Source of the DNA: a virus
Lineage: Duplodnaviria; Heunggongvirae; Uroviricota; Caudoviricetes
DNA length: 64,000 nt
Strand: one strand, 5' to 3'
Virus record (IMG/VR): IMGVR_UViG_3300045253_000164
Location: 26,314-90,313 of that record
Positions 1,909 through 52,659 of this stretch are shown here, piece after piece. A program made the position numbers and the translations under genes. Under the pieces are notes generated by a model that did not search any database, was not told the DNA's origin, and worked only from the letters and a program-made list of their open reading frames with translations. Numbering within the stretch: position 1 is the stretch's first letter; every line of letters starts with the position of its first letter.

Positions 1909-3285
1909 CTAGGGTGGGGGCGGCTCCAGTAGCACGGGTGTCTTCTGGGTGGCGTCTTGGTAGCGCTGGAGAATCATGGCGCAGTAGTCCGGGCTAATCT
2001 CCATCGCCCTCGCCTGACGGTGCGTGTTCTCTGCGGCAATGATCGTGCTGCCCGAGCCGGTGAATGGGTCGTACACGACATCTCCCGCATCCGTAAATGC
2101 GTTGATGAAAAACGACGGCAGGCCCACGGGAAACGCCGCAGCATGCCCAACAGCATCATGCGTCGCCGCCATTGCCGGGATGCGATTGCCCGGATAGGCC
2201 ATCCCTGGTCCGATATACTCACCGGCATCTTTCGATCTGCCTTGGACATCCGACATCAACGCCGATGTTCCATTGCGCCGTTTCTTGGCCGCACCAAATG
2301 AACCGGAAACGCTCTTCGCACCACGTCCGCCCTGCACATCGCGCCAACTCGTCTCGCCACTTCCCGCACCTCCGGCCCGTGGCACATTCTCGCTTGCATG
2401 GCGTACATGATCAGGGCGCATTTTCCATCGCCCGCGAACGAATTGGTAAATGGGCTCGAACTGGTTTTTGAACCGCTGCGTTACCGACTTCGGCACGCCA
2501 TTGCGCTCCCAGCAAAACTCGGTCGCAAAGTGCCATCCCCACGTGCGAACATGGGCAATCACCAAATCCATCACGTAGAGAAACGTATCGAGACCGTCGC
2601 AGGACGGTTTGATGTTTACGAACCACGACCCATCCGGCGCGAGATGCGCGGCCACGTGCGCAGCGACGGGCGCGAACCACTCCACGTACTGATCCGGGGC
2701 GATAGGTTTGAACCCCGACTTCGCATCGTAGTCGCGCTGCTCTGCATAGGGCGGCGACGTGAATGCGATGTTTATTTTCTCGCCGCCCATCAGCCGCGCC
2801 ACGTCCTCCGCCTTCGTGCTGTCGCCACAGAGTAGCCGATGCTCCCCCAGCTGCCAGAGTTGCCCCGTCGCCGTGCGCCACTGCTGCTGTAACTCCGCTG
2901 CGCGATCGATTTGCGGCTCGGCGTCGGCATCGCCGTGGCCCTCATCGCTGGCCGCCGCAATCAATGCCCGCAGCTCCTTGTCGCTCCACATCGCCTTCGT
3001 TGCCTCGGGCATCTCGGTCGCGATCTGCTGGAGGACGGTCGTATCCCATTCAGCGAGCTCAGCGGTACGATTGTCGTACAGCGCGAGCTTCGTTTTCTGC
3101 TCGGGGGTCAAGCCGGTGCGACGCACGGCCACCAGCGTCTCGCCATCGGTATCGACCACTTGCACGCGTTCAATCCCCGCTGCAGCAGCGGCCTCGATCG
3201 TGGCGTTGCCGGCTAGAACCACGCCATCCTCGTCGATGACGATGGGCCGGGCGGCGCCCACGTCCCGCATGGACTGCTCCACCAT
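1909..3285 (-). CDS. ParB-like nuclease domain fused to amino-(N6A/N4C) DNA methyltransferase
   Basis: An N-terminal ParB/Srx-like segment is present (RPIVIDEDGVVLAGNATIEAAAAAGIERVQVVD). MTase motif IV INIAFTSPPY comes first, followed by motif I DPFTGSGST near the C-terminus (beta-class order). The ORF track extends to 3414 with an alternative start; the internal ATGs at 3285 and 3270 avoid overlap with the upstream gene, so the true start is uncertain. Confidence 0.7.
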   Translation of the reverse strand: MVEQSMRDVGAARPIVIDEDGVVLAGNATIEAAAAAGIERVQVVDTDGETLVAVRRTGLTPEQKTKLALYDNRTAELAEWDTTVLQQIATEMPEATKAMWSDKELRALIAAASDEGHGDADAEPQIDRAAELQQQWRTATGQLWQLGEHRLLCGDSTKAEDVARLMGGEKINIAFTSPPYAEQRDYDAKSGFKPIAPDQYVEWFAPVAAHVAAHLAPDGSWFVNIKPSCDGLDTFLYVMDLVIAHVRTWGWHFATEFCWERNGVPKSVTQRFKNQFEPIYQFVRGRWKMRPDHVRHASENVPRAGGAGSGETSWRDVQGGRGAKSVSGSFGAAKKRRNGTSALMSDVQGRSKDAGEYIGPGMAYPGNRIPAMAATHDAVGHAAAFPVGLPSFFINAFTDAGDVVYDPFTGSGSTIIAAENTHRQARAMEISPDYCAMILQRYQDATQKTPVLLEPPPP

Positions 3286-3362
3286 ACCGACATTGCGCGG
3301 AGTATGCCGCCGGGCGTTGCGTGGATCGGGCCGCAAGTCTCGGAGGTGCGTGCTGGGTGTCG

Positions 3363-4064
3363 TCACGCGGCGCCGAGCCGAATTGTGGCCCACCGCTTTT
3401 CGATTCTTTCGCATACTGCCTCGTCCTTCACTTCGTTGCGCACGTCGAGCCCCATCTGCGTCATGATCCGGTAGAAGTCGTGGCGCGACATATTGCCCTT
3501 GATGTCTTCGATGGTTTGTACGACCCGGGCAATGGCCAGGATGGTGTTGCGGGCTTCGGAGATGTCGACGATCTGCCGCGGCTTGCCCTCATCGGCCAGT
3601 GTGGCGTGTTGACTCAGCGTCTCAATGGCGCCGCGAATCTTGTCGGGGTCCTGCGTGCGCAGCGCATACTGAAAAGCTCCCACGGCCTTGGCAAACTCGT
3701 CACGGGTGGATTTCCAGCTCTGATGCCATGTCAAGATGGCGTCTCGCCAGGCGTCGTAGCGCTCGATGAAGTCGACGAGAATCGCCCGGGCGTGGAACAG
3801 CTCGGGCAGGAGGTTCAGGGGGTCCTTGTCCTTGGCGAACTGTGCGGCGAGCTCCTTGAGGCGTTCATGCTGGAGCCCCTCGTACCGTTGGCTGCGCCGC
3901 CCGTGCTTCAACTGCTTCGTGACGTTGCGGCCGCCGTGGTACATACAACGGCCAGATTTTGGGTGATCTGTGCCCGCTCCCGCACTATTTTGACAGAACT
4001 TTCCCGGCTTTTTGGCGAGACGGGAATTACACTTATCGGTCGGGGGTGGGGAGTTGCGCGCCAT
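3363..4064 (-). CDS. putative terminase small subunit / packaging-associated DNA-binding protein
   Basis: 233 aa, basic N-terminus with a Cys/His cluster (CNSRLAKKPGKFCQNSAGAGTDHPKSGRCMYHGG). It sits immediately upstream of the MTase-TerL pair. Assignment rests mainly on position. Confidence 0.3.
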   Translation of the reverse strand: MARNSPPPTDKCNSRLAKKPGKFCQNSAGAGTDHPKSGRCMYHGGRNVTKQLKHGRRSQRYEGLQHERLKELAAQFAKDKDPLNLLPELFHARAILVDFIERYDAWRDAILTWHQSWKSTRDEFAKAVGAFQYALRTQDPDKIRGAIETLSQHATLADEGKPRQIVDISEARNTILAIARVVQTIEDIKGNMSRHDFYRIMTQMGLDVRNEVKDEAVCERIEKRWATIRLGAA

Positions 4065-4144: not shown

Positions 4145-5902
4145 CTACATCAGCCGTTCCGCCGTCAGGTAGAGGTTGAACACGGGCGCCCCCACTAGCC
4201 CGGTCAGGACCGCGTTGTAACGGATGGCGGCATCTGTGGTCGCCCGTAGAATCGCCTGCCCCTGTCCGAAACTGTCCAGGACTCCGAGGTTGACGTTTGA
4301 CGCAGGTGACGCAGACTGATTTCCCGCATCGTCGGTCCACGTAACCGTGGTCGCCAACGTGCCGGCTGTCGCGCCGCTCGTGGTGAGTTGGTAGACCCCG
4401 ACACGGTACACGCCTGCGGTGGAAGGCAGCAGCAGAACCCCAGAGACCGACGTGGTTTGGTTGCGCAACGACACACTGGCGAGCACTGGCGCGTAGAGCA
4501 GTTCCCCGGAGGTGACGTAGCGCGCCGCGGTGCTTATGGCACCTTGATACATCGGCACCAAAGGCACCACGGCGTCAGCCTGCACATGCGCGGTTTCCAG
4601 ACCGCTAACGCTCAGCAGGATGTCGCTTTGATCGGTGCGCACCGTGAGGGCGGCGCCCACGGCATTCAGCACGGCACGGTCGGGAAAATCGCTGTGCGCA
4701 GATGAGCCAATGCTATGGCCCAGCAAATGGCCAAGATCGTTGATGGACGCAACCACAGCTGCCGCACTCGTGCCGGCGCTCGCGCTCACTACCGCAACGC
4801 CGCTGTCATTGTCCGCTTCGCTATAGACGGTCAAGTCGAGCGCCGGTGTCGTTTTGCCCACTACCACCGGGCCGTTGAACTGCGACGGCGCATCCCCGGC
4901 AGCGAAGAACGCATAGCGACCACCCGCACCAGCGCTGATCGCCGAATACACCCCATAGACGGCGTCGCCGGCACTTTGATCTTCGATGTTGATGCCAATG
5001 TTACGGCCAAGATTTATGGCACCAACACCAACCGTGGTTACGTCGCGGACGTGGAGACCCGTACGGCCGGAGACCGTCACGACTCCCGTGGAAGCTGCGG
5101 GCTCCAACGTCACCCCAATATCAACACCGATGACCTGGTTGACGGTGAGGACGCCGCTACTGAGCGTTTCCACCGTTGGTTGGATATAGAGCCCAATGAT
5201 TTGCTGTTGGGCTACGCTATGGACGCCGTTCGCCAACACACCGGGTGTGTGGGCGTAACTGATAACGTCGGGAAGGTTGACGCCCCAATCGCCCGCTACA
5301 TTGGGCTGGTCCTGCATTCCGTAGAGCGTGCTGCCCGTGGCCGTACGCAGCACCGACAGGGTGGGGTTGATATTGAACCCCCGCAGCACCGTGTTCGTGC
5401 AGATGCCGCTGGCCATAACCAGCGTCGGCTTGTAGAGGCCAAAGTCGAAGCTCACATTATTATTGATGTCGAAGCTCGGCGCGAAGTAGAACGCCTGCCC
5501 GAAGTTCGGTGTGGCTTCGAGGCTACCGGTCAACGTGGAGCTTGCCGTCGATAACCATTGGTCGGGTGGGGTCACGGCTTCACCAGCGCCAGAAACGGTG
5601 ACGGACAACCCCACATCGGGCGTTGCGACGATGAGGAGATCCACGAGGCCGACCACGACGCTGGCATCACCGAGATGCCCGGTGACTTGGATGCGCCGGG
5701 TGGTGGGGAGCTGTGTCGGCGCCGCGCCAATCGCCGCGATTGCAGAGAGCCCATCAGCGGCGACTGTCAGCGTCACACTGGCATTGTTGACGGCACCGTC
5801 CACGACCCGCCACACGGGAATATCGGCGAGGGAGGTGATGTCGATCCCGAGGGCGGCGACCGTCAGATTGATGCTGCTGTTGGCTGCGACGATGTACCCC
5901 AT
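4145..5902 (-). CDS. tail fibre protein (shares a module with the giant fibre)
   Basis: 585 aa, Ala/Gly/Ser/Thr/Val-rich beta-type composition. It contains TDQSDILLSVSGLETAHVQADAVVPLVPMYQ...ARYVTSGEL, near-identical to a segment of the 1966-aa protein. Confidence 0.55.
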   Translation of the reverse strand: MGYIVAANSSINLTVAALGIDITSLADIPVWRVVDGAVNNASVTLTVAADGLSAIAAIGAAPTQLPTTRRIQVTGHLGDASVVVGLVDLLIVATPDVGLSVTVSGAGEAVTPPDQWLSTASSTLTGSLEATPNFGQAFYFAPSFDINNNVSFDFGLYKPTLVMASGICTNTVLRGFNINPTLSVLRTATGSTLYGMQDQPNVAGDWGVNLPDVISYAHTPGVLANGVHSVAQQQIIGLYIQPTVETLSSGVLTVNQVIGVDIGVTLEPAASTGVVTVSGRTGLHVRDVTTVGVGAINLGRNIGINIEDQSAGDAVYGVYSAISAGAGGRYAFFAAGDAPSQFNGPVVVGKTTPALDLTVYSEADNDSGVAVVSASAGTSAAAVVASINDLGHLLGHSIGSSAHSDFPDRAVLNAVGAALTVRTDQSDILLSVSGLETAHVQADAVVPLVPMYQGAISTAARYVTSGELLYAPVLASVSLRNQTTSVSGVLLLPSTAGVYRVGVYQLTTSGATAGTLATTVTWTDDAGNQSASPASNVNLGVLDSFGQGQAILRATTDAAIRYNAVLTGLVGAPVFNLYLTAERLM

Positions 5903-5915
5903 TTAGTCCCCTGTC

Positions 5916-6950
5916 CTAGAACGAGTAGACGCGGACTTCACCGCGGCCACCGCCGCCGCCAGCACCGCCGGTCGTTGTGCCCCCTGCGCCACCGCCGCCC
6001 CCGCCGCCGGCGTTGCCGCCAGCACCGCCAGCACCCCCCGTCGCCGCCAGTGTTCCACCACCCCCACCACCGCCCCATCCGGCGAAGTAGGTGCCATTGG
6101 TACCAGCGCCCCCCGGAGTTCCTGCCGGTCCCCCCGCGCCGCCACCACCACCGCCAATGGTAAAGAATTGGTTCATGCCGCCGTCGCCGCCAGTTTGCGC
6201 GGCGTTCACGGAAGTCACCATGCCACCACCACCACCGCCGCCGCCACCCTTGAGACTGGTTCCGCCGTTCTTGGCCGGACCCGCTCCGGTGGCTGTGCCG
6301 CCACCACTACCGCCGCCATGCTCTGCGGGGCTGCCGGCCGCACCTGAAGCTGACCCTGCGCCGCCGCCGCTGGTACCGTTGACGTTCGCGCTGATCGTCG
6401 GAAGACCCCCAGAGGACGAGGCGGCTTGTGCCCCAGCAGTCCCATCGCCACCGCTGCCACCACCGCCACCGCCAGAAGCGACGCCGGTACCACCCCCGGC
6501 TCCGCCACCGCCACCGCCGGCCTGCACCAGATTCCCGAAGGCTGAGGAGGTGCCGGCAGATCCTCCTGTTCCAACATTGTTGGCACCACCGCTGCCCGCA
6601 TTTCCACCAGTGCCAACGGTGATGGCGATAGTTGACGCAAGGTCCGATGCTTCGAAAATCGCCTCGTTGTACGCACCGCCTCCACCACCACTGCCGCCAT
6701 ATCGATTGGTCGCCGCCGCGCCGCCCTTACCGCCGCCACCGCCCCCACCGCCGCCGATGCAGATGACTTTCACCAGCTTCACGCCCGCGGGCTTGGTCCA
6801 AGTCCCGTTGGCGGAGAATGTCTGTACATCGACGGTCGCGCCACCGCCCGAGAGTTCACCGCTGACCACATACCGCGCGCCGCCGGTCTGCACGCCTTGG
6901 TAGACCGGATTGTAATGCAACGTGACGCCACTGGCCTGCACGTCACCCAG
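5916..6950 (-). repeat. GGC/GCC-rich codon tracts encoding the polyglycine-rich C-terminal domain
   Basis: The plus strand shows runs such as ccgccgccgccagcaccgccgg... and ccaccaccaccgccgccgccaccc, which are the reverse complement of Gly codons. Confidence 0.7.
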
Positions 6951-9900
6951 GAAGGTTGACGTGCCACTGGCGGTAAACGTGGTCGTGCTGCTCAGGACGA
7001 TCTTGCTACCGGTCCAGAATGAATCCTGGTTCATTCGCGCCAGGCGATACTTTCCAAGCTCGCCGGAAGCCATGAGGCGCAGTTGCGGACCGATGGCCCA
7101 TATGCCAGCGCCGTCAGTGTTCAAAAACACCGGAGGTGCCAAGACGACTGACGCAACCCCGAACACCGCCGCCGGTGCGCACAGCACCTGGCCGATCGCG
7201 CCTGTCGTGTCGTACCCGGCGAGCTCGAGCCCGTTGGACGGATTCGACGCCATGATCCCGGGCCGGCTGGCCCCGTAGATCAGCAGCTTGCCATCGACGT
7301 TGCCGCCGCTGATCTGGACGAGCCCCTGAGATGAGATAACCGTGCCGCCCGAGACACTGAAGAACGCATCGCTGTACGTGCGCAGCGATCCTGACACCGT
7401 GAGATCGCGGAGCACCGTGCTGCCGCTGACGCTCAGCGTTGTCGTCGCGCCGAACACCTGCTGCGGGCCGCTGACGTAGTTGGACGAGCCCTTGACGAAG
7501 TCGCCCGTCCCCGCACCGGCTTGCAGCTCGCCCGAGGTCACATACCGATTGCCCCCGGTGACGCTGCCGTTGTAGATCGGGTTGGCGCTAAGCGTGGTGC
7601 CGGCATTCTGAATCGTGAACCGGCTGGAGGAATTGATCAGAAAGTCGAGGTACCCACCGCTCGCGATGTTGTTGAAGCGAAACTCGCCAGTCGATGGTTT
7701 GAATCCGGTGAAGACTCCGGCCGCACCCGTGTTGTCGAGATATTCAACGCCAGCGAAATTCGTCGAGGCTGCGCCTTGTGGACGGAACAACGCATCCCCA
7801 TCCGTGGACTGCAACACGACCATCGTCGCCGCGCCGCTGCCGTAACCAGACTGCGCCGCGCCGCGGATGTGCAGATAGATGTCCGCAGCCCCAGTCCCGA
7901 GGCCAAGGTTGCCGTAGACGCGCTCATTGCCACTAACCTGGAGATCGCCGGCTGCCGTCAGTTTAGTGCTCCCGGTCGACCCAAAGAGCGTCAGGCCGCT
8001 GAACGTGACAACCGCGCCGGGCGCAAAGACGTTGGCGGCTGTCCAGAAGTTCGGGCTCGTCCGCGTGGCGTCCCCGGTTCCCGCTCCGGTGGTCAGCTCT
8101 CCCGAGGTGATGTAGCGCGCGCCGCCGCCGGTACCAAAGCCGTTGAACATCGCGCCGCCGATGACGTTGATCGGCGAGCCGCTGATCATGACGTTGGGAT
8201 CGCCGGTGATCGGACCATAGGCCAGCGTCGTACCGCTCACCTGCAGATCGGTGGTGACGATGGTGCCGGTGTTGCCAATACCCTTGGTTCCGACAGGCGA
8301 CAGGAACGCCAGGTTGTCGCCGCTGTTGCCGGTGGTGAAGATCGCGGTTCCGATCAGCACCATCGATCCCGTGATGCCGCCCGATCCCACCACGGCCCAG
8401 GTGTTGCCGTTCACATCTGCGCGGTTGCCGCCGAAGTACTGATAGGGGCGCCCATCGCCCACCTGGGTGCCGATGGCCACCGAGTCGACGGCATTGCCAT
8501 ACGTTATGAGCGCACCCGAGACGCTGGTGTCGCGAAGCACGGTCACGCCGCTGACGCTCACCGCGGTCGACGGCCCGAAGACGATCGGCGAGCCGGTCAC
8601 ATAATTGGCAGAGCCTTTGACGAAATCACCCGTGCCGGCGCCCAACTCCCCCGACGTTACATAGCGCTGCGAGCCGGTGATCTGGCCGGCATAGAGGCCG
8701 TTATAGACGATCGAGGCGCCACTGATTTGCAGCGGGCTCGAAGCCAGGAACACGATCGGCGAGAAGGCAAAACTCGACGCTTGCGTGCTGCCGACCAGAA
8801 TCAGATTGGCTGAATAGCTGGCCTGCGACTTGAAGAACACGTTGCCACGGTAGGTCGTGGTGCCATAGCTAACCTGGGTACCGGATACCGTGAGGTCATT
8901 GAGGATAGCGGTGCCGCTGATGGTGACTGTCGTTCCGGCGCTGAACACATTCTGCGAACCGGTCCAGAAGTTGTCCGCGGCACGTACTGCATCGCCACTA
9001 CCACTACCCCCAGGTAGTTCACCGCTCGTGACATACCGCTGCGCACCGGCAACACGCTGGTTGTAGAGAGATACGTAGCTAACCACAGGATCGCCGCCGC
9101 TAAGTGTTAGTGCACCAACCGGGGCATGAAAGAGCAATTGGTCTTTAGGGTTGTATGGGTTGAACACCTGCGTGCCGATAAACAGCCCAGATACCGTCGA
9201 TGCCTGCAACGAATAGCCGTTGGTATCGAGCGCTTGAAAGACGAGCGAGACACCACCGCCACCCGGCACGGGCACTGATTCCAACACGCCCGTGAAGTTA
9301 TTGGTGCCGGTGAACGTGTTGTTTCCAGCAAGGACGGCCAACGCAGTGAGCTCCCCACTGATCACAAACCGCGTCGCGGCAAGTGTCCCGAACTTCGAGT
9401 ACATCGGGGCACCAACGACGTGCACCGAGGTAACGCCGCTGATAATCAAGTCGGTCGGGGCCGTCACCGGACCATAAAGCAGGGCAATTCCACTCGCGCT
9501 CACGTCACCACCGAGCACCGTGTTGCCGCCGACCTCGAGACGGGCACTCGGCGACGCGACGTTCACACCTAAGTTGCGGCTGTTGGTAATGAGGAGCGCG
9601 CTGGTGCCCCCGATCAGGAAATTGATCGTGCCGGCGGCGTAGATGTTGTTGAATCGAAACTCTGCGGTGGACTGCTTGAATCCCGTGAAGACCGCGGCGG
9701 TCCCCGTGCTGTCCAGATACTCGACGCCGGCAAAACTTGTCGACGTGCCACCCTGCGGGCGGAAGAGCGCATCGCCGTCGGTTGACTGCAGGATGAGATC
9801 CGTGGCGGGTCCACTCCCGAACCCCGCTTCCGCCGGCGCCTTGATGTGCAGATACCCATCCGGTGCGGCGCTGGTCCCGATCCCGACCTTGCCGTAGACC

Positions 9901-11816
9901 AGCGCATTGCCGCTGACCTGGAGATCCCCAGCTGCTGTCAGTTTGGTGCTCCCCGTTGAGCCGAATTGCGTCAGGCCGCTGAACGTCACCAAGGCCCCAG
10001 GGGCGAAGACGTTGGCGGCGGTCCAGAAATTGGGGCTGGTGCGTGTGGCATCGCCCGTTCCGCCACCGGTGGGGAGCTCGCCAGACGTCACGTAGCGATG
10101 CGGCCCCGTCGCGCTGACGGCGAACAACGGCACGTCGATGAAGACCAACGTGTCGCGGGGCGTCCACTGCCGATAGGTCGCTGCCCCGCGCACGTCCCCG
10201 CTGCCGATCAGCAGATAGGTGAGTGCGGTGGGCTTGTTCTGGCCGTACACGGTCAGCGACGCCCCCGTCGAGTCGCCGATGATCAGGAAGTCGTCGCGCG
10301 AGCCCCAGGTCGTGACGGCCCCGCTGACCGTGAGGTCACTCCCGGTAATGCTGGTGCCACCGGTGGCGCCGAACGTCGTGCGGCGATAGCTGCGCACCAC
10401 ACCGCTCGCCTGAATGTCGCTGGCGCTGTCGAACACCGTTGGGATCGAGGCAAACGCAATCCGGTCTCCCAGCGTCAACTGGCTGAACTGGAAGAAGCCC
10501 GCCATCGATCCGGAGCCGACCAGTGCCAGGTTGTAGCCGGTCGACGCGTTCCCTTCGCCGGTGAACAGCGCATAGCGCGTCGAGCCGACCTGGAAGACAT
10601 CGGCCGCATTTCCCACCGGAGCGAACGCTGCCCCCACGCGCTGAATGGGTTTCGCATAAAGCGCCAGGGTACCGCTGATCTGGGTGTCCCCCGGAACGAA
10701 CAGGCGGCCGCTGATTGTGACGTTGCCGGAGAAGATGTTGGCCGCGCTGAAATAGTTGGGGCTGCTCCGCGTCGCATCCCCAGTCCCGCTGCCCGTCGGC
10801 AATTCACCGGAGGTCACATACCGCGCTCCGCCAGTGATGAAGTTCTGGTAGAGCGGTACCGTCGGGACGACTGCGTCAGCCCGGACGTTCACCGTTTCCA
10901 GGCCACTCACGCTGAGTCGCAAGTTGCTTTGATCAGTCGCCAGGCTCAGGGCTGCGCCGACACCTACTACCGCGGCGCGATCTGCCACCGTTGGGTCGCT
11001 GTTGACTGAGCTGAACATCGCCACGAACAACGAGTGGCCCACGTCGTTCTGGAAGATGTTGAGCGCCGCTGCGTTCGCGGTCGCACTAGCGTTTGCGCAA
11101 AAGATGCCGGCCAGGGCATCCGCATTATCGCGAATCTCCAGGCTGTAAGCGGGAGAGACAACGGTGCCGATACCAACGTTCCCCAGGAACACCCCGTTCC
11201 CGTAGGTGATGGCGCCACCGCTAACTTGCAGTTCACCAGCGGCGCTGACCCGCGTGCCACCGGCGGAGCCGAACCGCGTCAAGCCGCTCAGCGTGACCGT
11301 GGTTCCGGCGCTGAAGACATTCTGGCTGCCGGTCCAAAAGTTGTCGGACCCGCGAAGCGCGTCGCCACTGCCGCCCCCGCCACCGGCAGCAATCTCGCCA
11401 CTGGTGAGGTAGCGCCTGGACCCCGCCAGCGCTCCGTTGAACACCGCGCCGGTAAACAAGGAAATCCCGGGGTTGTCGATCAGCTGCAGTTGGATATGGC
11501 TCTGACCACCCAGGGACAGCGTCCCCGTGCTGTACAACGGCGTTGTGATCGCCCCATTTACGCCGACGTCGCTGTTGAGGTTGATGGCCGCGTTGACCGT
11601 GACCGGCGCCGTGAAGACGTTGGTGCCACGCCAGAGGTTGTTGCCGGCGAGAAACGCGTCGCCGAAGGCCCCTGGTGTGATGAAGAACGTCCGATCCTGA
11701 CTAAGGTCTCCACCGCCTTGCAGTGGCGACGTCGTCGCAATGACACGCGTCTGCGGCACCGGCGTGCTGCCGGCCGCTCCGCCAGAGGGCGTCAGCCCGG
11801 TCTTGAGATTCGGCAT
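5916..11816 (-). CDS. giant tail fibre / minor tail protein with internal repeats and a C-terminal glycine-rich domain
   Basis: 1966 aa with at least 8 copies of a module beginning (Q/A/H/N)RY(V/I/L)TSGEL followed by a Gly-rich turn. The C-terminal ~330 aa are polyglycine-rich (GGGGGGGGGKGG etc.). It lies downstream of TMP and the distal tail genes. Confidence 0.65.
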   Translation of the reverse strand: MPNLKTGLTPSGGAAGSTPVPQTRVIATTSPLQGGGDLSQDRTFFITPGAFGDAFLAGNNLWRGTNVFTAPVTVNAAINLNSDVGVNGAITTPLYSTGTLSLGGQSHIQLQLIDNPGISLFTGAVFNGALAGSRRYLTSGEIAAGGGGGSGDALRGSDNFWTGSQNVFSAGTTVTLSGLTRFGSAGGTRVSAAGELQVSGGAITYGNGVFLGNVGIGTVVSPAYSLEIRDNADALAGIFCANASATANAAALNIFQNDVGHSLFVAMFSSVNSDPTVADRAAVVGVGAALSLATDQSNLRLSVSGLETVNVRADAVVPTVPLYQNFITGGARYVTSGELPTGSGTGDATRSSPNYFSAANIFSGNVTISGRLFVPGDTQISGTLALYAKPIQRVGAAFAPVGNAADVFQVGSTRYALFTGEGNASTGYNLALVGSGSMAGFFQFSQLTLGDRIAFASIPTVFDSASDIQASGVVRSYRRTTFGATGGTSITGSDLTVSGAVTTWGSRDDFLIIGDSTGASLTVYGQNKPTALTYLLIGSGDVRGAATYRQWTPRDTLVFIDVPLFAVSATGPHRYVTSGELPTGGGTGDATRTSPNFWTAANVFAPGALVTFSGLTQFGSTGSTKLTAAGDLQVSGNALVYGKVGIGTSAAPDGYLHIKAPAEAGFGSGPATDLILQSTDGDALFRPQGGTSTSFAGVEYLDSTGTAAVFTGFKQSTAEFRFNNIYAAGTINFLIGGTSALLITNSRNLGVNVASPSARLEVGGNTVLGGDVSASGIALLYGPVTAPTDLIISGVTSVHVVGAPMYSKFGTLAATRFVISGELTALAVLAGNNTFTGTNNFTGVLESVPVPGGGGVSLVFQALDTNGYSLQASTVSGLFIGTQVFNPYNPKDQLLFHAPVGALTLSGGDPVVSYVSLYNQRVAGAQRYVTSGELPGGSGSGDAVRAADNFWTGSQNVFSAGTTVTISGTAILNDLTVSGTQVSYGTTTYRGNVFFKSQASYSANLILVGSTQASSFAFSPIVFLASSPLQISGASIVYNGLYAGQITGSQRYVTSGELGAGTGDFVKGSANYVTGSPIVFGPSTAVSVSGVTVLRDTSVSGALITYGNAVDSVAIGTQVGDGRPYQYFGGNRADVNGNTWAVVGSGGITGSMVLIGTAIFTTGNSGDNLAFLSPVGTKGIGNTGTIVTTDLQVSGTTLAYGPITGDPNVMISGSPINVIGGAMFNGFGTGGGARYITSGELTTGAGTGDATRTSPNFWTAANVFAPGAVVTFSGLTLFGSTGSTKLTAAGDLQVSGNERVYGNLGLGTGAADIYLHIRGAAQSGYGSGAATMVVLQSTDGDALFRPQGAASTNFAGVEYLDNTGAAGVFTGFKPSTGEFRFNNIASGGYLDFLINSSSRFTIQNAGTTLSANPIYNGSVTGGNRYVTSGELQAGAGTGDFVKGSSNYVSGPQQVFGATTTLSVSGSTVLRDLTVSGSLRTYSDAFFSVSGGTVISSQGLVQISGGNVDGKLLIYGASRPGIMASNPSNGLELAGYDTTGAIGQVLCAPAAVFGVASVVLAPPVFLNTDGAGIWAIGPQLRLMASGELGKYRLARMNQDSFWTGSKIVLSSTTTFTASGTSTFLGDVQASGVTLHYNPVYQGVQTGGARYVVSGELSGGGATVDVQTFSANGTWTKPAGVKLVKVICIGGGGGGGGGKGGAAATNRYGGSGGGGGAYNEAIFEASDLASTIAITVGTGGNAGSGGANNVGTGGSAGTSSAFGNLVQAGGGGGGAGGGTGVASGGGGGGSGGDGTAGAQAASSSGGLPTISANVNGTSGGGAGSASGAAGSPAEHGGGSGGGTATGAGPAKNGGTSLKGGGGGGGGGMVTSVNAAQTGGDGGMNQFFTIGGGGGGAGGPAGTPGGAGTNGTYFAGWGGGGGGGTLAATGGAGGAGGNAGGGGGGGAGGTTTGGAGGGGGRGEVRVYSF
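7620..8120 (-). repeat. segmental duplication copy A inside the fibre gene (~0.5 kb)
   Basis: Near-identical antisense ORFs occur at 7927..8115 and 9907..10095 (MPLTWRSPAAVSLVLPV...) and at 7615..7845 versus 9643..9897. DNA alignment by eye gives ~80-85% identity at an offset of ~1980 bp. Boundaries are approximate. Confidence 0.6.
9600..10100 (-). repeat. segmental duplication copy B inside the fibre gene (~0.5 kb)
   Basis: Partner of 7620..8120. It encodes the second copy of ...GTGDATRTSPNFWTAANVFAPGA(L/V)VTFSGLT(Q/L)FGSTGSTKLTAAGDLQVSGN... Confidence 0.6.
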
Positions 11817-11823: not shown

Positions 11824-12888
11824 TTACGTCAACTCGCTGCGCTGCGCTCCCAGAAGCCCCGGACGCGCCGTAAAGCTGACGCCCAACACCCGAAGTCCCG
11901 CGGGCGAACCCGACTCAGAAAGGGCCGATCCAGACACGACCGTGTACGGAAACCGCGGGATGAAGACGCCCAGGCCGTAGCCGATCGCCGTTCGTGTGAC
12001 ACTGACGGCACCGAGGGTGATCGTGGCAAACACATTGGCACCCGGCGAACTCACATCATCCGGGTTCTGCGCGACGACAAGCGGCACGGTCTCCAGCCGG
12101 GTGGTCAGCGGTGTATCGGTCCCTCCGCTACTCACGCTGTTTTCCCCGCGCCACAGGGTGAGCCCAACGGTGACCATCGAGGGAATCGGGACGGTGGTGC
12201 CGTAGACGTTGCGTGTGCCGCTGGAGGCGGCGCCAGACAGGACCACGCTCACGGTGGCGCGCAGCTCGGTGACTTGTCCGGTGATCTGGTTGTCCGTGAG
12301 TTGCAGCCACGCGATTCCGCTGGCGTGCACGCTATCGATCGGACCACTGCCCGCGATCGACGCGATGGAGCCGATGGGCGGTCCCGAGTTCGAGGTGAAG
12401 TCCCCGTCGGTGGTCTGGTACACCAAACGACTGCGGGTAGCGGTGATCGCGACATACTGCCCTCGCGCTTCCTTGCTCGAGTCGTTCCACGGTCCCATGA
12501 GATGGGCGGTGTCGTTTGACGGATTCCCCGTCTGCACCCATCCCAGGTACTCCGCATCCCACCGGGGAGGCTGCGTAGGAGACAGTAACGCCGCCGCACC
12601 AGAGACCAGGAAGGTACCGTCGGAGCGCACGAACACCGAATAGCCGGTCCCGGCCGCCGTGGGGCCAAATGAGATCGACTGCATCCCGCTGGCAAACACG
12701 TAGCCGGGACCGCCGATGCCCACTTGGTTGGCCGGCCCAGACGGGTACCGCAGGCTCCCGGGACTGATGAACAGTCGCACGACCCCGGCTGCATCACCAC
12801 CAGCGGCCACCGTGCCGGAGGCGATCCAGAACGGTTGATTCATCCGCGATCGCGTGCCGCTATCTCCATTTTGCCAGTCGTTTTTCAT
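11824..12888 (-). CDS. minor tail / baseplate-region protein
   Basis: 354 aa, Ser/Gly/Thr-rich, positioned between the distal tail protein and the fibres. Confidence 0.45.
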   Translation of the reverse strand: MKNDWQNGDSGTRSRMNQPFWIASGTVAAGGDAAGVVRLFISPGSLRYPSGPANQVGIGGPGYVFASGMQSISFGPTAAGTGYSVFVRSDGTFLVSGAAALLSPTQPPRWDAEYLGWVQTGNPSNDTAHLMGPWNDSSKEARGQYVAITATRSRLVYQTTDGDFTSNSGPPIGSIASIAGSGPIDSVHASGIAWLQLTDNQITGQVTELRATVSVVLSGAASSGTRNVYGTTVPIPSMVTVGLTLWRGENSVSSGGTDTPLTTRLETVPLVVAQNPDDVSSPGANVFATITLGAVSVTRTAIGYGLGVFIPRFPYTVVSGSALSESGSPAGLRVLGVSFTARPGLLGAQRSELT

Positions 12889-12895: not shown

Positions 12896-13303
12896 TCAGT
12901 TCACCGTGCCGCTCATCGTTAGCACCAGATCAAGATTGACCGTGCTCGAGGCGTTTTTGCCGTACGGCGAGGGCTCCGCCGCCACCGCAATCAGCGTCCC
13001 GCTGTTGGCCGCGCCGTTGGCGCCACTGCCCCCATACAGCCCGTAGTAACAGACCACCTGGTTCTGGTTGTCCGTGAGGCCCAAGAAGGCGTGGAAGATG
13101 GCCGCGGTGCCCGCTGCGTCCGCACCGACGATCGCGGTCCGGAAGGTTTCAGCCGGCAGTTGCCACCAGAACCGCCCGGGGGCCGGGGGCGAAGGAAGTG
13201 TCCCCGAGGAGACCGCAATCCACATCGGCGGCGTCGGATTCAGCCCGATGGCGAAATCCCGAAAGAACGCCAGCCCTCCACTCGTCAACACTGCATTCGC
13301 CAT
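12896..13303 (-). CDS. small tail-associated hypothetical protein
   Basis: 135 aa beginning MANAVLTSGG... at an internal ATG. The upstream 5' part of tracked ORF 12896..14230 overlaps the 768-aa gene in another frame and is judged artefactual. Confidence 0.4.
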   Translation of the reverse strand: MANAVLTSGGLAFFRDFAIGLNPTPPMWIAVSSGTLPSPPAPGRFWWQLPAETFRTAIVGADAAGTAAIFHAFLGLTDNQNQVVCYYGLYGGSGANGAANSGTLIAVAAEPSPYGKNASSTVNLDLVLTMSGTVN

Positions 13304-13311
13304 AGCGTGCC

Positions 13312-15618
13312 TCAGTACAACGTCGGATCCACCACCCAGTAGCTCGCCACAATGTAGGGCGTCGTGCCGCTGCCCCAATCCGGGGCCACATGGAACGGCG
13401 GCGTGTTCACCGTCGCGGTCACCGAACCCGGCACCACCAGCAACGTCGTGGCGGCGTCGAGCTCGATGAGATTGAGCGCCGCGACCTGGCCCTGCTGCAC
13501 TGCTTGCGCCTGCACGCCCAGCAACATCTGCTGATAGTCCAGAAAGTTGAACCGGGTGGCCTGGCACTGCACGGAGTACCGCGCGCGCTCCGCTCCCACG
13601 AAGCCCACGTCCAGCTCTTGGACCAAGGCCGTTCCGGAGAACGTGAACCCCGTGACCGCCGGCGTCACCACCACCGGCACCGAGTCGCCCACCTTCCACG
13701 TCGGCACCCAGGAGTCGAAGCTGATGACGGTGACCACGTTGCTCCACCGCGCAAGCTCCAGGTCGCCGCGCGCCCGCGCAACCGCAAACGACGTGAGCGA
13801 GGTATCGTTCACGGCATAGTCGCGGACGCCGCCGTACAGCGCCGCATTGTAGTGCTCGGCAATCTGCGTCCCGGACAGCGCGTAGGCATACACCGCCACT
13901 TCGTCCAACGACCCCAGCAACCGGTGGCTGCCGGTGTCGTAGTTGTAGTTGCCGATCTCGATGCCGCTGCCCGGAACCGTGCCGGGGTTGAGGAGTACCG
14001 AGTCCTGCGCGACGAGCGTATTGTTGACGTACAGCGACCGGACCCGCGAGATGCCCACCGTCTGCCAGGTGCCGACCACATGGTCCCAGTTGGTCCCGGT
14101 CGGCTGGCCGCTGGCCGCAAACGCTACCAGTGGCGGATTCGTCGGATAGTTCTGGTCGTAGGCCAACCCATACGTGCCGCCAGAGGTCACCCACAGCGCG
14201 GCGCCGCCGCGAGCAAACGCGGTGTCCCATTGCCCCACAATACCCGCGTCACGATAGGCCGGGCTGCCATCGGGCAACGTGCTGCCAGTCTGGAATGTCG
14301 ACGTCCGGACCCAGGCCTCCAAGCTCCCGTTGCTCGTGGGAATCTTCGCCCCGCTCACCATCAGGATACGACCGCCGGCGAGATCCAGCGCCGTGTCGGT
14401 ATCCGCGTGAATCACCCCAGCGATGCCCAGCGTGGCATTGCCAGTCAGCATTCCCGAGAACGTGACCCCGGTGGCCGCGCTGTTCGCGATGCGGGATCCT
14501 GACGCCTCATCCAAGCGCCAGTAAAAGATTGGAGAGTCGCCCAGGACGACCGTAGAATAGGCGGTGCCATCCAGGGCGGCGACCGCCGCTTGCGACGGTT
14601 GGCTCTCGCGCATCACGGAGATCGGCACCTGCCATTGGTACGAGAACACCACCCGCGAGCCATCGGGAATGGTATCCGTGCCCACCGGGGTCCGGACATG
14701 CGCATTGTTGCCCGGCTCGAGAATGAAGCCGCCGGCGAACGTGCTTTCGTCCACCACCCCAGCCAGACCGACGCGCTGCGCGACGCCGTCGATCGTCATG
14801 AACGGCGACGCGCCGCTGATGGTCAGCGTGGCGACCACGTTATCGTGTGCCAGCGGAAAGACCGTGGTCTGGCCATCGGCGTCCCACTGGTCGATGACAG
14901 GAGTCGAGGATGCCGCACCCCCTTGCACAAAGATGCGGTTGCGCACCTGGTCCAGCTGCGGCTCGATTGACAGATTGTCGTAGTTCTGACTGGTGTTGGT
15001 GACCGACTCCGCCGAGGCCTGCGTCGTTGTACCGGCAGGGTAGAAGTGCAGCACGAGCGTGGCGTCGACGTAAAACTCGTAGGTAACGATCTGCGCGAGC
15101 TGCTGCACGACCGCCAAGGGATAGACAAACGCAAAGCTCACATGATCGAGGATGGTGGCCGTGTCCATCACGTTCGCGTCGATAATGACCTGCGGGGCGT
15201 ACTGGCGCACGACGTCGCGGACGATGTCAGAGACTTCCCAGCCGACGTACGTCTTGTTGACCAGAATCTGCGCCAGGAGGTTGGTGTAGTCGACGCACTG
15301 AATATCCCAGCGGGCCGCGCCTGGGCCCACCTTCACCTGCGTCACGTGACTGATGGATCCGCCAAACCGCGCGACAAACGGCTGGCCCGTACCGTTCTGC
15401 ACCTCGATCAATACCGACTGGCCGACGGTGGGCAGTGATCCCCCTGCCGTCCGCCATGAGCTTGGGGGAAACAGGGAGAACGACGCTGAGTCCACCTGGG
15501 CGCCCAGGATCTGACGGACCTGGATCGTGGAGGCCATCACCTCGCCCGTCGCCGTGCGATCGACGCCCGCGACCCAGACGCGGACGCTTGGCAGCGGCAG
15601 CGGGTAGGTAGTGGCCAT
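13312..15618 (-). CDS. distal tail protein (Dit/Tal-like) with a ConA/LamG-like jelly-roll domain
   Basis: 768 aa, immediately downstream of TMP. The central segment GSLEAWVR...GSLDEVAVYAYALSGTQIAEHY resembles a LamG/ConA-like lectin fold. Confidence 0.5.
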   Translation of the reverse strand: MATTYPLPLPSVRVWVAGVDRTATGEVMASTIQVRQILGAQVDSASFSLFPPSSWRTAGGSLPTVGQSVLIEVQNGTGQPFVARFGGSISHVTQVKVGPGAARWDIQCVDYTNLLAQILVNKTYVGWEVSDIVRDVVRQYAPQVIIDANVMDTATILDHVSFAFVYPLAVVQQLAQIVTYEFYVDATLVLHFYPAGTTTQASAESVTNTSQNYDNLSIEPQLDQVRNRIFVQGGAASSTPVIDQWDADGQTTVFPLAHDNVVATLTISGASPFMTIDGVAQRVGLAGVVDESTFAGGFILEPGNNAHVRTPVGTDTIPDGSRVVFSYQWQVPISVMRESQPSQAAVAALDGTAYSTVVLGDSPIFYWRLDEASGSRIANSAATGVTFSGMLTGNATLGIAGVIHADTDTALDLAGGRILMVSGAKIPTSNGSLEAWVRTSTFQTGSTLPDGSPAYRDAGIVGQWDTAFARGGAALWVTSGGTYGLAYDQNYPTNPPLVAFAASGQPTGTNWDHVVGTWQTVGISRVRSLYVNNTLVAQDSVLLNPGTVPGSGIEIGNYNYDTGSHRLLGSLDEVAVYAYALSGTQIAEHYNAALYGGVRDYAVNDTSLTSFAVARARGDLELARWSNVVTVISFDSWVPTWKVGDSVPVVVTPAVTGFTFSGTALVQELDVGFVGAERARYSVQCQATRFNFLDYQQMLLGVQAQAVQQGQVAALNLIELDAATTLLVVPGSVTATVNTPPFHVAPDWGSGTTPYIVASYWVVDPTLY

Positions 15619-15619: not shown

Positions 15620-18600
15620 TCAGCTCAGCAGCGCATTGCGCTTGATGTCCCGCATCTGGACGTTGCTGACCAGGCGCGCCAGCCGGTTCGCGCTCGCCTC
15701 GTCAAGAATATAGTTGCCGGTGAAGACGTACTGAACCGTCGGCGCCAGCGCATTGCCTCGGGACAATGGCACCACCGCCTCCGGACCACGCTCGCCCAGG
15801 AGCGCCAACGTAGGCGCGCTGACGATGCCGCCTGCAGCCAGCTTTGGCAGCCCGAGGTTGTTGACGGTCGAGAAGATCGTGGTCAGGCCTGGGGAGCTGA
15901 TAATGCGGTTGATCGTCCCGAGGGCCGTGGAGATGTTCGGGCCGGCAGTGGTCAGCGCCGTATCGAACGCCGCGAAAGCGGCATCGACCTGCGCTTTCGT
16001 GGCGTTCGGATCACTGAGCGTGGTGCTCAACGCCTTGAGCGCCAAAAACATGGGGGCCAGGGCAACCTGAATCACGCCCTGCTTGACCAGCGCGTCCACT
16101 ACGCCACTCAGAATGGCGTCGCGGACTCCCTGCTGGATGGCGGCGCGCATCGACCCCTGTGGTGAGGCCAGGGCATCGGCCGCTGCTTTGTCCGCCAGGC
16201 GCTGCTTCTCGGCGGCCTGTTCCGCCTCGCGCGCATACTCCTCGGAGGCGCGCTGCATCTGGAGCTGCGCTTCTGTGACCGTGTCGCCGAAGAGTCGTGC
16301 CTGCTCGATTTGCAGGCCCAACGTTTTGATGTTGCTCTCGTGGGTCGCCTGACTCAGCGCGTACTGTCGCTCGGCGGCCTGCTCCTGCAGCGTGAGCGCC
16401 GTCTGCTGTTCGGGCGTGAGGCTCAGCGCGGTCGCCAGCGCCTTGATGCTGGCGGTGATCGCTGACGAGGCAAGGTTGTTGAGCCCCGTCGTCAGCGTCT
16501 GAACCGCGGCCGCGAGCTCGTCCACGTTCACGATGGACTTGTCGCCAACCTTCTCCATGTATTGCAGCGCCAACGCGCCCGCGTCGACGCCCTGGGGGAG
16601 GTCCGAGGCGAAAATCTTTACGGTGTCCGCCACCGAGGCGTTGTACTGGTCCTGGGTAATCTTGCTGGTGAGCAGCTGCTTGTTGGCTTCATCGAGCACA
16701 TTGGGCAACGTTGCGCCGATCGACGTGAGAAATCGCGAGAGGTACATGCGCGACTGGTCGATCGAGAGGCCCAGCGCACGGAAGTTGTTGACCATCGTAT
16801 TGGCCCACATGAGGCCGTACTGGGCGTTGCCGCCCTGCAACACCTGCCCGAGGCCAGCCAGGGGATCACGGAGCACCTCGGAGGCAGGGTTGCCCTGTAG
16901 GATCTTTTGGAACTCCGGTTTCCCCGCATCCTTCTGCGCGGCGATCGTCGCCAACGGTCGGTCATACACGGAGTCCTTGAACGACACCGCCTGCGGGATG
17001 TTGGCCTTCGCGAAGGCCTTGTCGAGCGACTTCCCGAACTGGTCTTCCAGTGTCGGCCCGGGCCCGATGATCAGGCTCGCAAGCAAATCAATCGGATTCG
17101 AGAACGCCATCGCCAGCTTGCCGCCCGTGGTGCTTCCACCGCCGAACAGCGAGGACGTCGCCTGTCCGGGCTCAATGGCGTTCACGATGTTCGCGAGCGC
17201 GGCGCTCTTGAACCCGAACGCCCCCAGGAAGCCCTCGCCAAACTGCTCATATGCGATCCGCTGACGTTCCGCAGGAGAGATGTAGTGAAATCCCTGAAAG
17301 ACATTCTTCGTATCGTAGGCATTCGAGAGCCCTTCGCCAGCGTTGATGGCTCCCTGAATGCCCGCAGCAATCAAAGCAGCGTAGCCCGCCACCGCGGCGC
17401 TCCCGCTGGCGGCGGCGGCCCCAGAACTACCCACCTGCTGTCCCTGTGCGGAAAAGTCCTGGCCGCCAGTGGAGGCGCTTTGCCCTCGCGGAAACAGCAG
17501 CGCCGATTCCTGCTGGGTCAAGGCCGTCGCGGAGGTCGCGGTCGTGTATGTTGGCGGACCACCCGTCCAGGACGCCAAGCCACCCGACACAGTCGCGCCG
17601 CGGCCGACTCCTGGGCCTCCGCTCAAAAGATCGAACGCTGCGCTGATATTCTTCACGATGCCGGAGCCACCTTCGGCAGCCATGCCGGGCAGCGTCTCGG
17701 TCATGTTGATGTTGAACTTCTGATCAAACCCGATCTTCTTGATCAGCGCCTCTTCGAATCCCTTGGCGAATTGCTTTCCAATGGACTGCGTGAAGGCCTG
17801 CAGCGCATCGCTACCCTTGCGGGTGCCGTTGATGACGGCGTTGAATGCGTCGTCGCTCGCCTGGGTGAACACCTTCCCGAGATCGATGACGGAGCCCTTT
17901 GCATCAGCCACCATTTGCGCGTACGCCGCATCGACCTCGGCGAGATACTCGAGGTGGCCGGACTTCTTGATTTCCTCAACGAGCTTGTCGTGCGCCTTGG
18001 CGAGCTCGGCGAGCTTGTTCTGCGTCTCGGTGCCGAACGCCTTTGCATAGTAGGCCTGGACGTCGTCGGACAGCTTCTGCTGGGCGGCGCGCTCCTTCTC
18101 CATCGCCTCAATGCGCTTGGTGACTTCCTCGGCATCGCCAATTGTCCGCTGCCGATTCAGTTGCGCGATCTGTTCGTTGATGGCCGCGATCTGACTGGGC
18201 TCCAGCACTGCGACCGCGAGCCAGTCCTGGAGCGCCTTGACGCGGGCATCGAGCTTCTGGTTTTCCAGCGCATGAAGCTGCTCGAGTTCCTGCGCCGCGC
18301 TGATCTGGTGGACGGCGGCCAGTTGCTTCACGCCCTGTTGAGCGATGTCGAGCGTGGCGATCGTCGCCTTCTCGCGCGCGTCGATGGCGGTCTTGGCGAT
18401 GGCCTGGCCTTCGTCAAAGGACAGCTTCTCGCGTTCGTTCTGGGCGGTCTTTTCTGCCGCGAGATCCTTGGCGCGCGCCTCGGCTTTCGCCGCCTCGTAA
18501 TCGTTGTAGGCCTTCCCGCCTTTGTTGAGTGACGAGACATCGCCCTGCTCACGGGCAATGAGCGCGTCACGCTGCATCTCCAGCTCTTTTGCGTTGGCGG

Positions 18601-30671: not shown

Positions 30672-31718
30672 TCACTCCAACCCCAGGCCCTGCAGCACCC
30701 GCGCCGCCAGGTGCTTGTACAACCACTTCTCCATCGTGAGCGCGTAGGCCCGCTGCGTGATGGCGTCGTACTGATCCGGGTTGTCGCGCACCCATTGCGC
30801 GGCGTCTCCCATGCTAACGGCATCGCGGCTGTGCGCCAACCAGATCCCGTCGGGATCCGTCGGTCCCTCGTGTCCGAAGCAGCGCCGCGGCGCGCCGAAC
30901 GCGGACACCATCGACGGGACGTGATCGCTCAGCATCACGCAGCCCATGGCGAACGCCTCGACGATGCGCATGGGCACGAAGTCGACGTTGGAACAGCTGA
31001 GGGCACAGAGCGCCCGGTTGTAGGCGTCGGCCATGCCCTGATAGCTGAACACCTTGCCGAAGATCGTGCTGGCACTCTCACCCAGGTTGGAGCCGTACCA
31101 CTGGGCCGGCATCGCTTCGGCACCATCGAACCGCGCGCGCAGCTGGTTCCAGATGGTCGGGCGGGGTTCGTAGTGGGTGCCGATCTGACAGATCAGCTTG
31201 TCGCGATCGGCGCCGGGTTTGGTCAGCGGATGAATCTCGGGGTCCGCACCGAACACGAACCATTCCGCCGGACGCCCCTGGCGATCGACGGGTAGCGGCA
31301 CTTTGGCCGTGCGGCCGTTGTCGTCATGCTGGATGAAGTAGGCCTCGAAGTCCGCAGCGCGGAGTTGACTGCGGCTGTGCTGCTCGGCGTTAAAATTTTC
31401 GATTGCCAGGTGTCCCCACTTGATGCCCTCCGGCGCGGTGCCCGTGATAACCAAGTGGTCGTATTGATCAACCGTGCAGACCACGTCCGGTGACCATCCC
31501 ATGTCCGTGCGCGCCAGCTCGACGACGGTCCCAATGTCCACCGGCGCGTTGGGCAGCTCGAGATCGTTGCGGCGATACTCCGCCCACTGACTGAAGCCGT
31601 AGACCTCGGGCGAGCTCGGCCCCGCGGTCAACACCTCGTGGCCCAGTTGCTGGAACGCGCGGCGGACGAACAGCCCGACACACATCGGGCGACTCATGTA
31701 CGTACACAACACCCTCAT
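30672..31718 (-). CDS. GT-B fold glycosyltransferase (GT1/GT4-like, CgeB-like)
   Basis: Start at MRVLCTYM (internal ATG 31718, ATGA overlap). The C-terminal domain has DFVPMRIVEAFAMGCVMLSD, resembling the GT1 E-x7-E region. It is paralogous to 38689..39624. Confidence 0.55.
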   Translation of the reverse strand: MRVLCTYMSRPMCVGLFVRRAFQQLGHEVLTAGPSSPEVYGFSQWAEYRRNDLELPNAPVDIGTVVELARTDMGWSPDVVCTVDQYDHLVITGTAPEGIKWGHLAIENFNAEQHSRSQLRAADFEAYFIQHDDNGRTAKVPLPVDRQGRPAEWFVFGADPEIHPLTKPGADRDKLICQIGTHYEPRPTIWNQLRARFDGAEAMPAQWYGSNLGESASTIFGKVFSYQGMADAYNRALCALSCSNVDFVPMRIVEAFAMGCVMLSDHVPSMVSAFGAPRRCFGHEGPTDPDGIWLAHSRDAVSMGDAAQWVRDNPDQYDAITQRAYALTMEKWLYKHLAARVLQGLGLE

Positions 31719-52013: not shown

Positions 52014-52078
52014 GTTCTCCTCCCACTCAAAAACGTTCGGGCGACACCACCCACGCAACGGCATCGCCAGGTTCACCC

Positions 52079-52621: not shown

Positions 52622-52659
52622 GGGTGTTCGTGCTGACGCGGCTGACTGCATGGGGCGCG

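Follow-up and report, generated by a model that had tools for sequence, protein, structure and literature searches.

A giant phage tail fibre gene with the features of a mosaic organised by a previously undescribed junction peptide

The DNA analysed here is a stretch of 64,000 nucleotides from an uncultured tailed phage of the Caudoviricetes (positions 26,314 to 90,313 of IMG/VR record IMGVR_UViG_3300045253_000164), referred to below as the 64-kb window, and it carries on its minus strand two adjacent genes in which one short peptide recurs. The first, here called the giant gene (5916-11816), is an open reading frame (ORF) of 1,966 amino acids (aa), and the second, its downstream neighbour (4145-5902), encodes 585 aa; both had been delimited identically in a preliminary description of the sequence. 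That description had counted at least eight modules opening with RY(V/I/L)TSGEL, and the present scan bears this out. The octapeptide R[YF][VIL][TVI]SGE[LI] is found in the giant protein at aa 135, 332, 574, 816, 927, 1051, 1234, 1424 and 1648, including the variants RFVISGEL (aa 816) and RYVVSGEL (aa 1648), with a tenth, degenerate copy, RLMASGEL, at aa 1580, and the neighbour carries a single copy at aa 461. Of the ten copies in the giant, eight count as strict and two as degenerate. A six-frame scan of the window detected the octapeptide nowhere outside these two genes, and a degenerate DNA pattern of the motif gave seven matches in the window, all within the giant and its neighbour, while none of 100 shuffled sequences gave a match. 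The recurrence of the octapeptide in the two genes is far beyond chance. Judged from its sequence, the locus appears to encode a mosaic phage fibre organised by a previously undescribed, universal junction peptide.

From its N-terminus onwards the giant protein can be divided into an anchor, nine junction-delimited cassettes (M1 to M9) and a glycine-rich tip. The anchor (aa 1-134; 11415-11816, minus strand, as are all features of the two genes) has the form MPNLKT...VPxxRxIxTTxPLxGGGDLSxDRT and is kept in 14 family members. M1 (aa 135-331; 10824-11414) is entered by the junction RYLTSGEI and has the head GDA...NFWTGSQNVF, and its distal part belongs to a block (aa 210-339; 10800-11189) held in common with the neighbour. 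It is followed by M2 (aa 332-573; 10098-10823), which was delimited by motif position and protein self-comparison, and by M3, which begins with the first copy of a duplicated block (aa 574-746; 9579-10097) and ends at aa 815 (position 9372). M4 (aa 816-926; 9039-9371) has the degenerate junction RFVISGEL, M5 (aa 927-1050; 8667-9038) has a head paralogous to that of M1, and M6 (aa 1051-1233; 8118-8666) has a GDFVKGSANYVTGSPIVF head and is paralogous to M8. M7 begins with the second copy of the duplicated block (aa 1234-1405; 7602-8117) and ends at aa 1423 (position 7548), and it is followed by M8 (aa 1424-1579; 7080-7547) and by M9 (aa 1580-1647; 6876-7079), which is entered by RLMASGEL. The last junction, RYVVSGEL, leads into the glycine-rich C-terminal tip (aa 1648-1966; 5919-6875), probably the receptor-binding end, where many runs of the GGGGxGG type lie between aa 1680 and 1960 of a tip of about 300 aa. 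Module clustering detected no relative of this tip among the tips of other family members.

Protein self-comparison shows that nine of ten cassettes of the giant are alike over their first 60-130 residues. The head type GDA...NFWTG...NVF is used seven times by the giant, in three sub-types that are also found in other phages; across the family these sub-types are NFWTGSQNVF, TSPNFWTAANVF and GDFVKGSANYVTGSPIVF. Inside the duplicated block lies a domain (aa 640-746 and 1300-1405; window 9579-9899 and 7602-7919) with 37-50% identity to the proteins P0030-P0034, of which four carry Pfam PF26696 and four end in the motif GFLPPRMT..QR.AI..P..GLIVY.

The neighbour, too, is fibre-like, and it has a single junction and its own tip. 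Its residues 342-468 (4499-4879) are paralogous to giant aa 210-339, and this homology ends exactly at RYVTSGEL. The module that the preliminary description had seen as closely shared by the two genes is indeed a homologous block, 51% identical in protein (E 7e-24 over 130 aa) and 54% in DNA; duplication both within and between the fibre genes is borne out, by one module pair inside the giant and one module in common with the downstream gene. The neighbour's tip (aa 469-585; 4148-4498) is a unique C-terminal domain and a singleton in module clustering, with a weak similarity to the tip of another family member, P0012 (pairwise E 5e-5, in an alignment that takes in the motif). Beyond the shared block, the remainder of the protein has a weak match to a cassette of P0007 (24%, E 2e-5). 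The neighbour is otherwise an orphan among 5.8 billion proteins, and it has no counterpart in three syntenic phage contigs, L001-L003, described below.

An own ribosome-binding site (AGGGGA) precedes the neighbour, and an in-frame TAA lies just 5' of its ATG, indicating that it is made as a separate product. The same two features rule out a fusion of the giant and the neighbour by frameshifting. A scan for promoters and terminators between the two genes found nothing on the coding strand.

When the shaft of the giant protein was used as a query, only eight relatives were recovered, all of them metagenomic and all studded with the same motif. In an alignment of 81 copies from 10 proteins, the octapeptide proves to be the last part of a longer element of about 30 aa, vQvSGtLl.Y.P.YqG...GA.RYVTSGEL, in which the R, S and G are invariant and the E is near-invariant. 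A profile of this junction, compared with 1.84 billion representative proteins, gave 28 matches, among them the giant itself (E 2.8e-109, with 14 matching stretches), the neighbour (E 5.2e-5) and two that are spurious; the family was put at about 24 of the 1.84 billion. The spurious matches, P0022 and P0024, are translated repeat arrays in which FSPLFQGSVTAT alternates with LSVPYSKGRSLQ, and they resemble arrays of clustered regularly interspaced short palindromic repeats (CRISPR) miscalled as proteins.

The fibres of this family range from 255 to 2,219 aa and follow a common grammar, anchor-(junction-cassette)n-junction-unique tip. Fourteen of them have the N-terminal anchor MPNxKT...PLxGGGDLSxDRT, and seven begin directly with a junction. 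Each protein has between one and 14 junctions, spaced 27-470 aa apart (median 106), and what follows a junction is variable: at least four types of post-junction head occur across the family, enzyme or lectin cassettes lie between the junctions of some relatives (an SGNH/GDSL esterase in P0010, aa 933-1005, and a LamG domain in P0004), and the tip after the last junction is a singleton in six of the 10 clustered proteins. Two members are minimal: P0027 (255 aa) consists of anchor, one junction and tip, and P0023 (221 aa), made up of pre-junction, junction and tip, has 60% identity with the tip of P0009, a protein of 1,525 aa. After the P0006 fibre gene lies a gene for a BD-FAE esterase (contig L006, 9431-10822). 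The junction is found in two tail backgrounds, one with a tape measure and a LamG protein, as here, and one that is P2-like, with Phage_tail_S. It is in the P2-like context that the fibres starting with a junction are located, which argues that the junction system crosses tail types.

The anchor has a far wider distribution. The motif VPxxRxIxTTxPLxGGGDLSxDRT, which the giant carries within its first 60 or so residues, occurs in at least 155 IMG/VR stretches. The giant and its 14 anchor-bearing relatives share it with these loci; they differ from them in the shaft, the junction motif being found in none of the 80 anchor loci that were kept (32-70% GC), in any frame. The anchor is thus common, and the junction-built shaft is not.

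Searches for the junction elsewhere returned very little. In 50,697 deposited phage genomes there was no match, either by megablast of the region or by tblastn of the giant, the neighbour, P0003 and P0008, and two DNA patterns of the motif gave no match in IMG/VR. In 185,579 GTDB species genomes a single pattern match was obtained, on a contig of a Gaiellaceae metagenome-assembled genome, and it can be attributed to chance because it lies in the wrong reading frame; over metagenome contigs the pattern had one true match, from Hainich groundwater. Neither Pfam nor NCBIfam matched the motif-bearing region of the proteins scanned. With PHROGs included, the neighbour again had no match and the giant had a single sub-threshold one, to Gly_rich_2. 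In P0003 and P0008 the junction gave weak multi-copy matches to the 51-position phrog_4911, no stretch reaching significance by itself. The exact string RYVTSGEL was not found in a full-text literature search. Taken together, the sequence comparisons indicate that the junction-delimited fibres probably form a very small, previously undescribed family, seen in metagenomes only.

The assignment of the giant gene to the tail is supported by the genes around it. Minus-strand genes succeed one another as follows: tape measure, LamG protein, 138-aa protein, 354-aa protein, giant, neighbour, TerS-like gene, methylase and TerL. The tape measure (15620-20299) was recognised through the PHROG family for tail-length tape measure proteins (E 4e-12), and is followed in the tail block by a 768-aa protein with a LamG-type lectin domain (13312-15618), a 138-aa protein (12896-13312) and a 354-aa protein (11824-12888) that adjoins the giant. 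Beyond the neighbour lie the packaging genes, a TerS-like gene (3363-4064) and TerL (37-1908), with an N6/N4 DNA methylase (1909-3414; E 4e-29) between them. A 444-aa ORF on the minus strand (12896-14230) that overlaps the LamG gene was over-called: conservation in L001-L003 is limited to its last 138 aa.

These three metagenomic phage contigs have the same tail gene order, conserve the 138-aa protein and close the block with a fibre of 1,525-1,920 aa. The identity to L001 is 55% for the tape measure, 55% for the LamG protein, 64% for the 138-aa protein and 43% for the 354-aa protein, whereas the giant can be aligned with the L001 fibre, at 42%, only over its first 226 aa, the remainder being rearranged; the same 226 residues are 42% identical to P0002. 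No other gene of the tail block is as poorly conserved as the fibre. Position and synteny identify the giant as a tail fibre, and it has the general attributes of one, namely a place in the tail block downstream of the tape measure, a conserved N-terminus and a divergent tip. Alignment with L001 restricted to the N-terminus, next to tail genes that stay conserved, is typical of the fibre that recognises the host, and we read the giant as a putative host-recognition fibre.

Several other genes were noted in passing. TnpB-like genes (Pfam Cas12f1-like_TNB) lie beside or close to the fibre block in two related phage contigs (L002, 1-943, and L008, 7752-8840). In the window, on the minus strand, a 507-aa protein (57719-59242) has an N-terminal dockerin type I domain (E 1.5e-6), which is unusual for a phage, and a protein with an SPFH/Band 7 domain is encoded at 51207-52688 (E 2e-16). 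A group of sugar-modification genes (30672-37093, minus strand) includes a glycosyltransferase-like protein (30672-31859), a DegT/DnrJ/EryC1 aminotransferase (33720-34856; E 4e-82) and a carbamoyltransferase (35651-37093; E 6e-49). The putative targets of this cluster could be DNA, virion proteins or host surface sugars.

We next consider where the homology between cassettes begins and ends. In the comparison of M3 with M7, protein identity is 10-30% upstream of the motif, reaches 90-100% over the next 60 or so residues, and then decays, so that the homology starts exactly at RYVTSGEL. The comparison of the giant with its neighbour is the mirror image: identity rises to 60-75% towards the motif and is 5-10% immediately after it. 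Homology blocks that begin or end at the motif, together with the presence of the motif in two unrelated tail backgrounds, would be expected if the junction were a DNA-level recombination signal guiding exchange between phages, as has been proposed for the distal fibre genes of T-even phages. This was addressed with a codon test, in which the frequency of identical codons at residues identical between two copies is compared with the frequency predicted from the codon usage of both genes. Over all pairs of junction octapeptides the same codon was observed in 34% of cases, against an expected 37%, and for the serine of the motif both codon families, AGY and TCN, are in use. Since the synonymous codons of the ten copies in the giant are scrambled in this way, it is the peptide and not the DNA that is conserved. 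Moreover, illegitimate recombination followed by selection for a working joint accounts for the breakpoints equally well, and we regard a DNA-level signal as improbable. The cassettes are bounded by a motif that is kept as a peptide and not as DNA. A peptide that is conserved at cassette borders in two tail backgrounds, in DNA that is not, points to a rule of structural compatibility rather than to a recombination signal.

A conserved peptide could also be a recognition site and not a structural joint: it might dock accessory or branching proteins, of which the neighbour would be one, or a fibre chaperone, or be the target of sugar-modifying enzymes of the phage. The neighbour, which lacks an anchor, has both the junction and the shared cassette, the window encodes the glycosyltransferase-like protein, DegT aminotransferase and carbamoyltransferase listed above, and the motif contains a conserved Thr-Ser pair. 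Against modification, no glycosyltransferase family is listed in four relatives, L001-L003 and L006, over the fibre gene and up to 10 kb downstream of it, a weak argument in that the precomputed Pfam lists are partial. The 27-aa spacing at which junctions can follow one another suits a structural repeat better than a docking site. We consider it unlikely that recognition is the primary function of the junction.

The similarity between copies had been interpreted differently in the preliminary description, which took it for a near-identical duplication of about 0.5 kb and saw in it a plausible substrate for host-range variation and assembly errors. Such a reading, in which recent segmental duplication and recombination between genes keep the locus active as a hotspot where copy number changes, host range switches and assemblies collapse, finds support in paralogous blocks, both between the two genes and, within the giant, offset by 1980, 1125 and 2370 nt. 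Comparison of the DNA with itself does show off-diagonal similarity, in three direct repeat pairs that all lie within the giant gene: 7885-8117/9865-10097 (233 nt, 78% identity, offset 1980 nt), 7366-7517/8491-8642 (152 nt, 70%, offset 1125 nt) and 8913-9012/11283-11382 (100 nt, 75%, offset 2370 nt). There are no other direct repeats of at least 60 nt in the whole window, and no inverted repeats were found in it.

The duplicated blocks of M3 and M7 (aa 574-746 versus 1234-1405) are the closest cassette pair, and the duplication is real, but the copies are far from near-identical. They are 74% identical in protein over 173 aa (E 8e-88); in DNA the figure is 71% for the whole block and 78% for its best 233 nt. 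The identity of around 90% or more and the long exact tracts expected of a recent repeat are absent, since exact DNA matches extend to no more than 19 nt within the giant (M3 versus M7) and 12 nt from giant to neighbour. Two antisense ORFs described as nearly identical are 79% identical in DNA, and because 41 of the 51 sites that differ in the best 233-nt block are third codon positions of the minus-strand gene, they can be explained as by-products of the sense gene.

The same codon test was applied to the cassettes. The proportion of identical codons was 49% for M3/M7 (expected 41%, z = 1.8), 41% for M6/M8 (expected 38%, z = 0.4), 38% for M1/M5 (expected 39%, z = -0.1) and 35% for the giant and neighbour (expected 38%, z = -0.5), and codon identity at conserved residues is thus what codon usage alone predicts. 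By the Nei-Gojobori method, M3/M7 have a synonymous divergence (dS) of 1.5 and a nonsynonymous divergence (dN) of 0.19, a dN/dS ratio of 0.12. For M6/M8 dS is 1.05; it is at least 1.5 in the remaining three pairs (M3/M7 included), and the comparison of giant and neighbour is saturated. Across the pairs compared, dN/dS ranges from 0.11 to 0.32, and there was no sign of gene conversion between copies. These results show that the cassette copies are ancient paralogues kept alike by purifying selection on the protein, because codon identity is at the level expected from usage, dS is high and exact DNA matches do not exceed 19 nt.

With a DNA identity of 54-78%, the repeat tracts are too short and too diverged either for efficient homologous recombination or for confusing an assembler. 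The window also contains no template/variable repeat pair of the kind found in diversity-generating retroelements, although no search aimed at a reverse transcriptase was made. We conclude that the proposed hotspot for recombination, copy-number variation and assembly error is largely refuted by the present data, in which synonymous sites between the copies are randomised, and is very improbable. For genome curation the consequence is the opposite of the concern first raised, the repeats being too diverged to cause assembly errors.

It is scarcely credible that the long ORF is an artefact, whether a chimeric assembly or a repetitive surface protein of non-phage origin such as a glycine-rich bacterial adhesin. 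Such an origin would fit a gene that is repetitive and GC-rich, ends in a glycine-rich tail and has no fibre annotation in Pfam or PHROGs. Against it, the ORF runs without interruption, fibres of 1525-2219 aa with the same anchor, junctions and gene order are encoded on independent contigs of other samples, the repeats are too diverged for mis-assembly, and the flanking genes are tail and packaging genes.

The explanation that we favour, with a probability of roughly 0.65 for the whole, is that the giant serves an uncultured tailed phage as its main tail fibre, built of junction-joined cassettes by old duplications around a connector that acts at the protein level. In this explanation the widespread N-terminal anchor (aa 1-134) would dock the fibre to the tail tip, and a shaft of some 1,500 aa would follow, made of nine cassettes that are each entered via the same junction of about 30 aa, with the glycine-rich tip (aa 1648-1966) touching the host. 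The junction itself would be a self-contained structural connector between exchangeable cassettes, resetting the register of a presumably trimeric fibre such that any cassette or tip may follow any other, and its invariant Arg and near-invariant Glu are candidate inter-chain clamps. The duplications within the gene (M3/M7, M6/M8 and M1/M5) are old, and one cassette would have been copied into, or from, the downstream 585-aa gene, with breakpoints exactly at the junction. After duplication all synonymous similarity was lost, and only purifying selection has kept the proteins alike.

A number of observations weigh against this explanation. The trimeric state of the giant, its location on the virion and its binding of a receptor are all points that we infer. 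The neighbour has no N-terminal anchor by which it could attach to the virion. A family-wide count of breakpoints (blocks of at least 60 aa at 45% identity or more) favours the explanation, in that 78% of the homology blocks between proteins open at the motif or in the pre-junction, where random placement gives 22%, but the figure of 78% is inflated and the statistic biased because the junction is itself conserved and draws alignments up to the motif. The match of Pfam Gly_rich_2 (PF21722) to giant aa 1671-1895, although it covers profile positions 6-219 of 226, has an E-value of 4.8e-4 and a score of 20.6 bits, below the cut-off of 24.3. Structure prediction of one module lends the connector role no support: an AlphaFold2 monomer of the M3 block, from a 15-row alignment, had a mean predicted local distance difference test score (pLDDT) of 56, and of 40-50 at the junction, and Foldseek found no significant match to this model in the PDB (best E 0.28). 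The tip, modelled with AlphaFold2 as a single sequence, had a pLDDT of 37, and a PDB sequence search returned nothing meaningful for the giant, the neighbour, the tip or the junction profile.

Within the explanation of the giant as a junction-joined fibre, a bolder proposal can be made, that the junction of about 30 aa is a universal self-folding plug that might allow beta-rich cassettes, enzymes, lectins and tips to be combined freely, whatever their order or number, and to pass between tails of the sipho-like and P2-like kinds. That junctions may succeed one another at a spacing of 27 aa fits a self-contained element, and we advance the proposal tentatively, as a possibility that falls short of being probable. 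Tail fibres determine host range and are well known to evolve as mosaics, yet what makes fragments compatible is mostly not understood. Should the structure of a trimer confirm the role proposed here, the junction would explain how fibre length and tip vary and could serve as a connector for engineered receptor-binding proteins; a true plug would be a natural standard connector for engineering fibres of chosen length and specificity.

Finally, the locus can be compared with known systems. Protein-fragment mosaicism has been described for the receptor-binding proteins of sequenced phages (Smug et al., 2023; PMC10684548), which, like the giant, combine shuffled fragments and are conserved in their N-terminal part but variable distally. 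That work treats the phenomenon in general and is not known to describe a universal junction peptide; no member of the junction family was found in the 50,697 deposited phage genomes searched. The tip can be set beside the polyglycine tips by which Pam3 gp24 and Salmonella phage S16 gp38 bind receptors, and in which several glycine-rich motifs occur (PMC9608196). The giant has GGGGxGG-like runs where a receptor-binding tip is expected; its tip is much longer than the 125-residue Pam3 domain and has no sequence match to solved structures. In composition, and by the sub-threshold match to Gly_rich_2, the tip of the giant resembles these polyglycine tips, and it is a putative member of that group.

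As a long fibre of serial, related, beta-rich units, the giant also recalls the proximal fibre protein gp34 of T4 (PDB 5NXH). The two have no sequence similarity, and the sole link between them is the Foldseek hit (E 0.28, template modelling score 0.25), which is non-significant and comes from a low-confidence model. A further parallel is offered by the distal long-tail-fibre genes of T-even phages, gp37/gp38, which reportedly have exchangeable segments delimited by His boxes and glycine-rich motifs. There, as in the giant, variable segments are parted by a repeated conserved motif and homology blocks are bounded by it, of which the window provides two cases. The motif of the giant is unrelated in sequence to those of the T-even phages and differs from them in being conserved as a peptide, with randomised codons, and not as DNA. 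It differs also in its distribution, for the junction recurs along the whole shaft, up to 14 times, and not just near the tip, separating whole cassettes of 27-470 aa.

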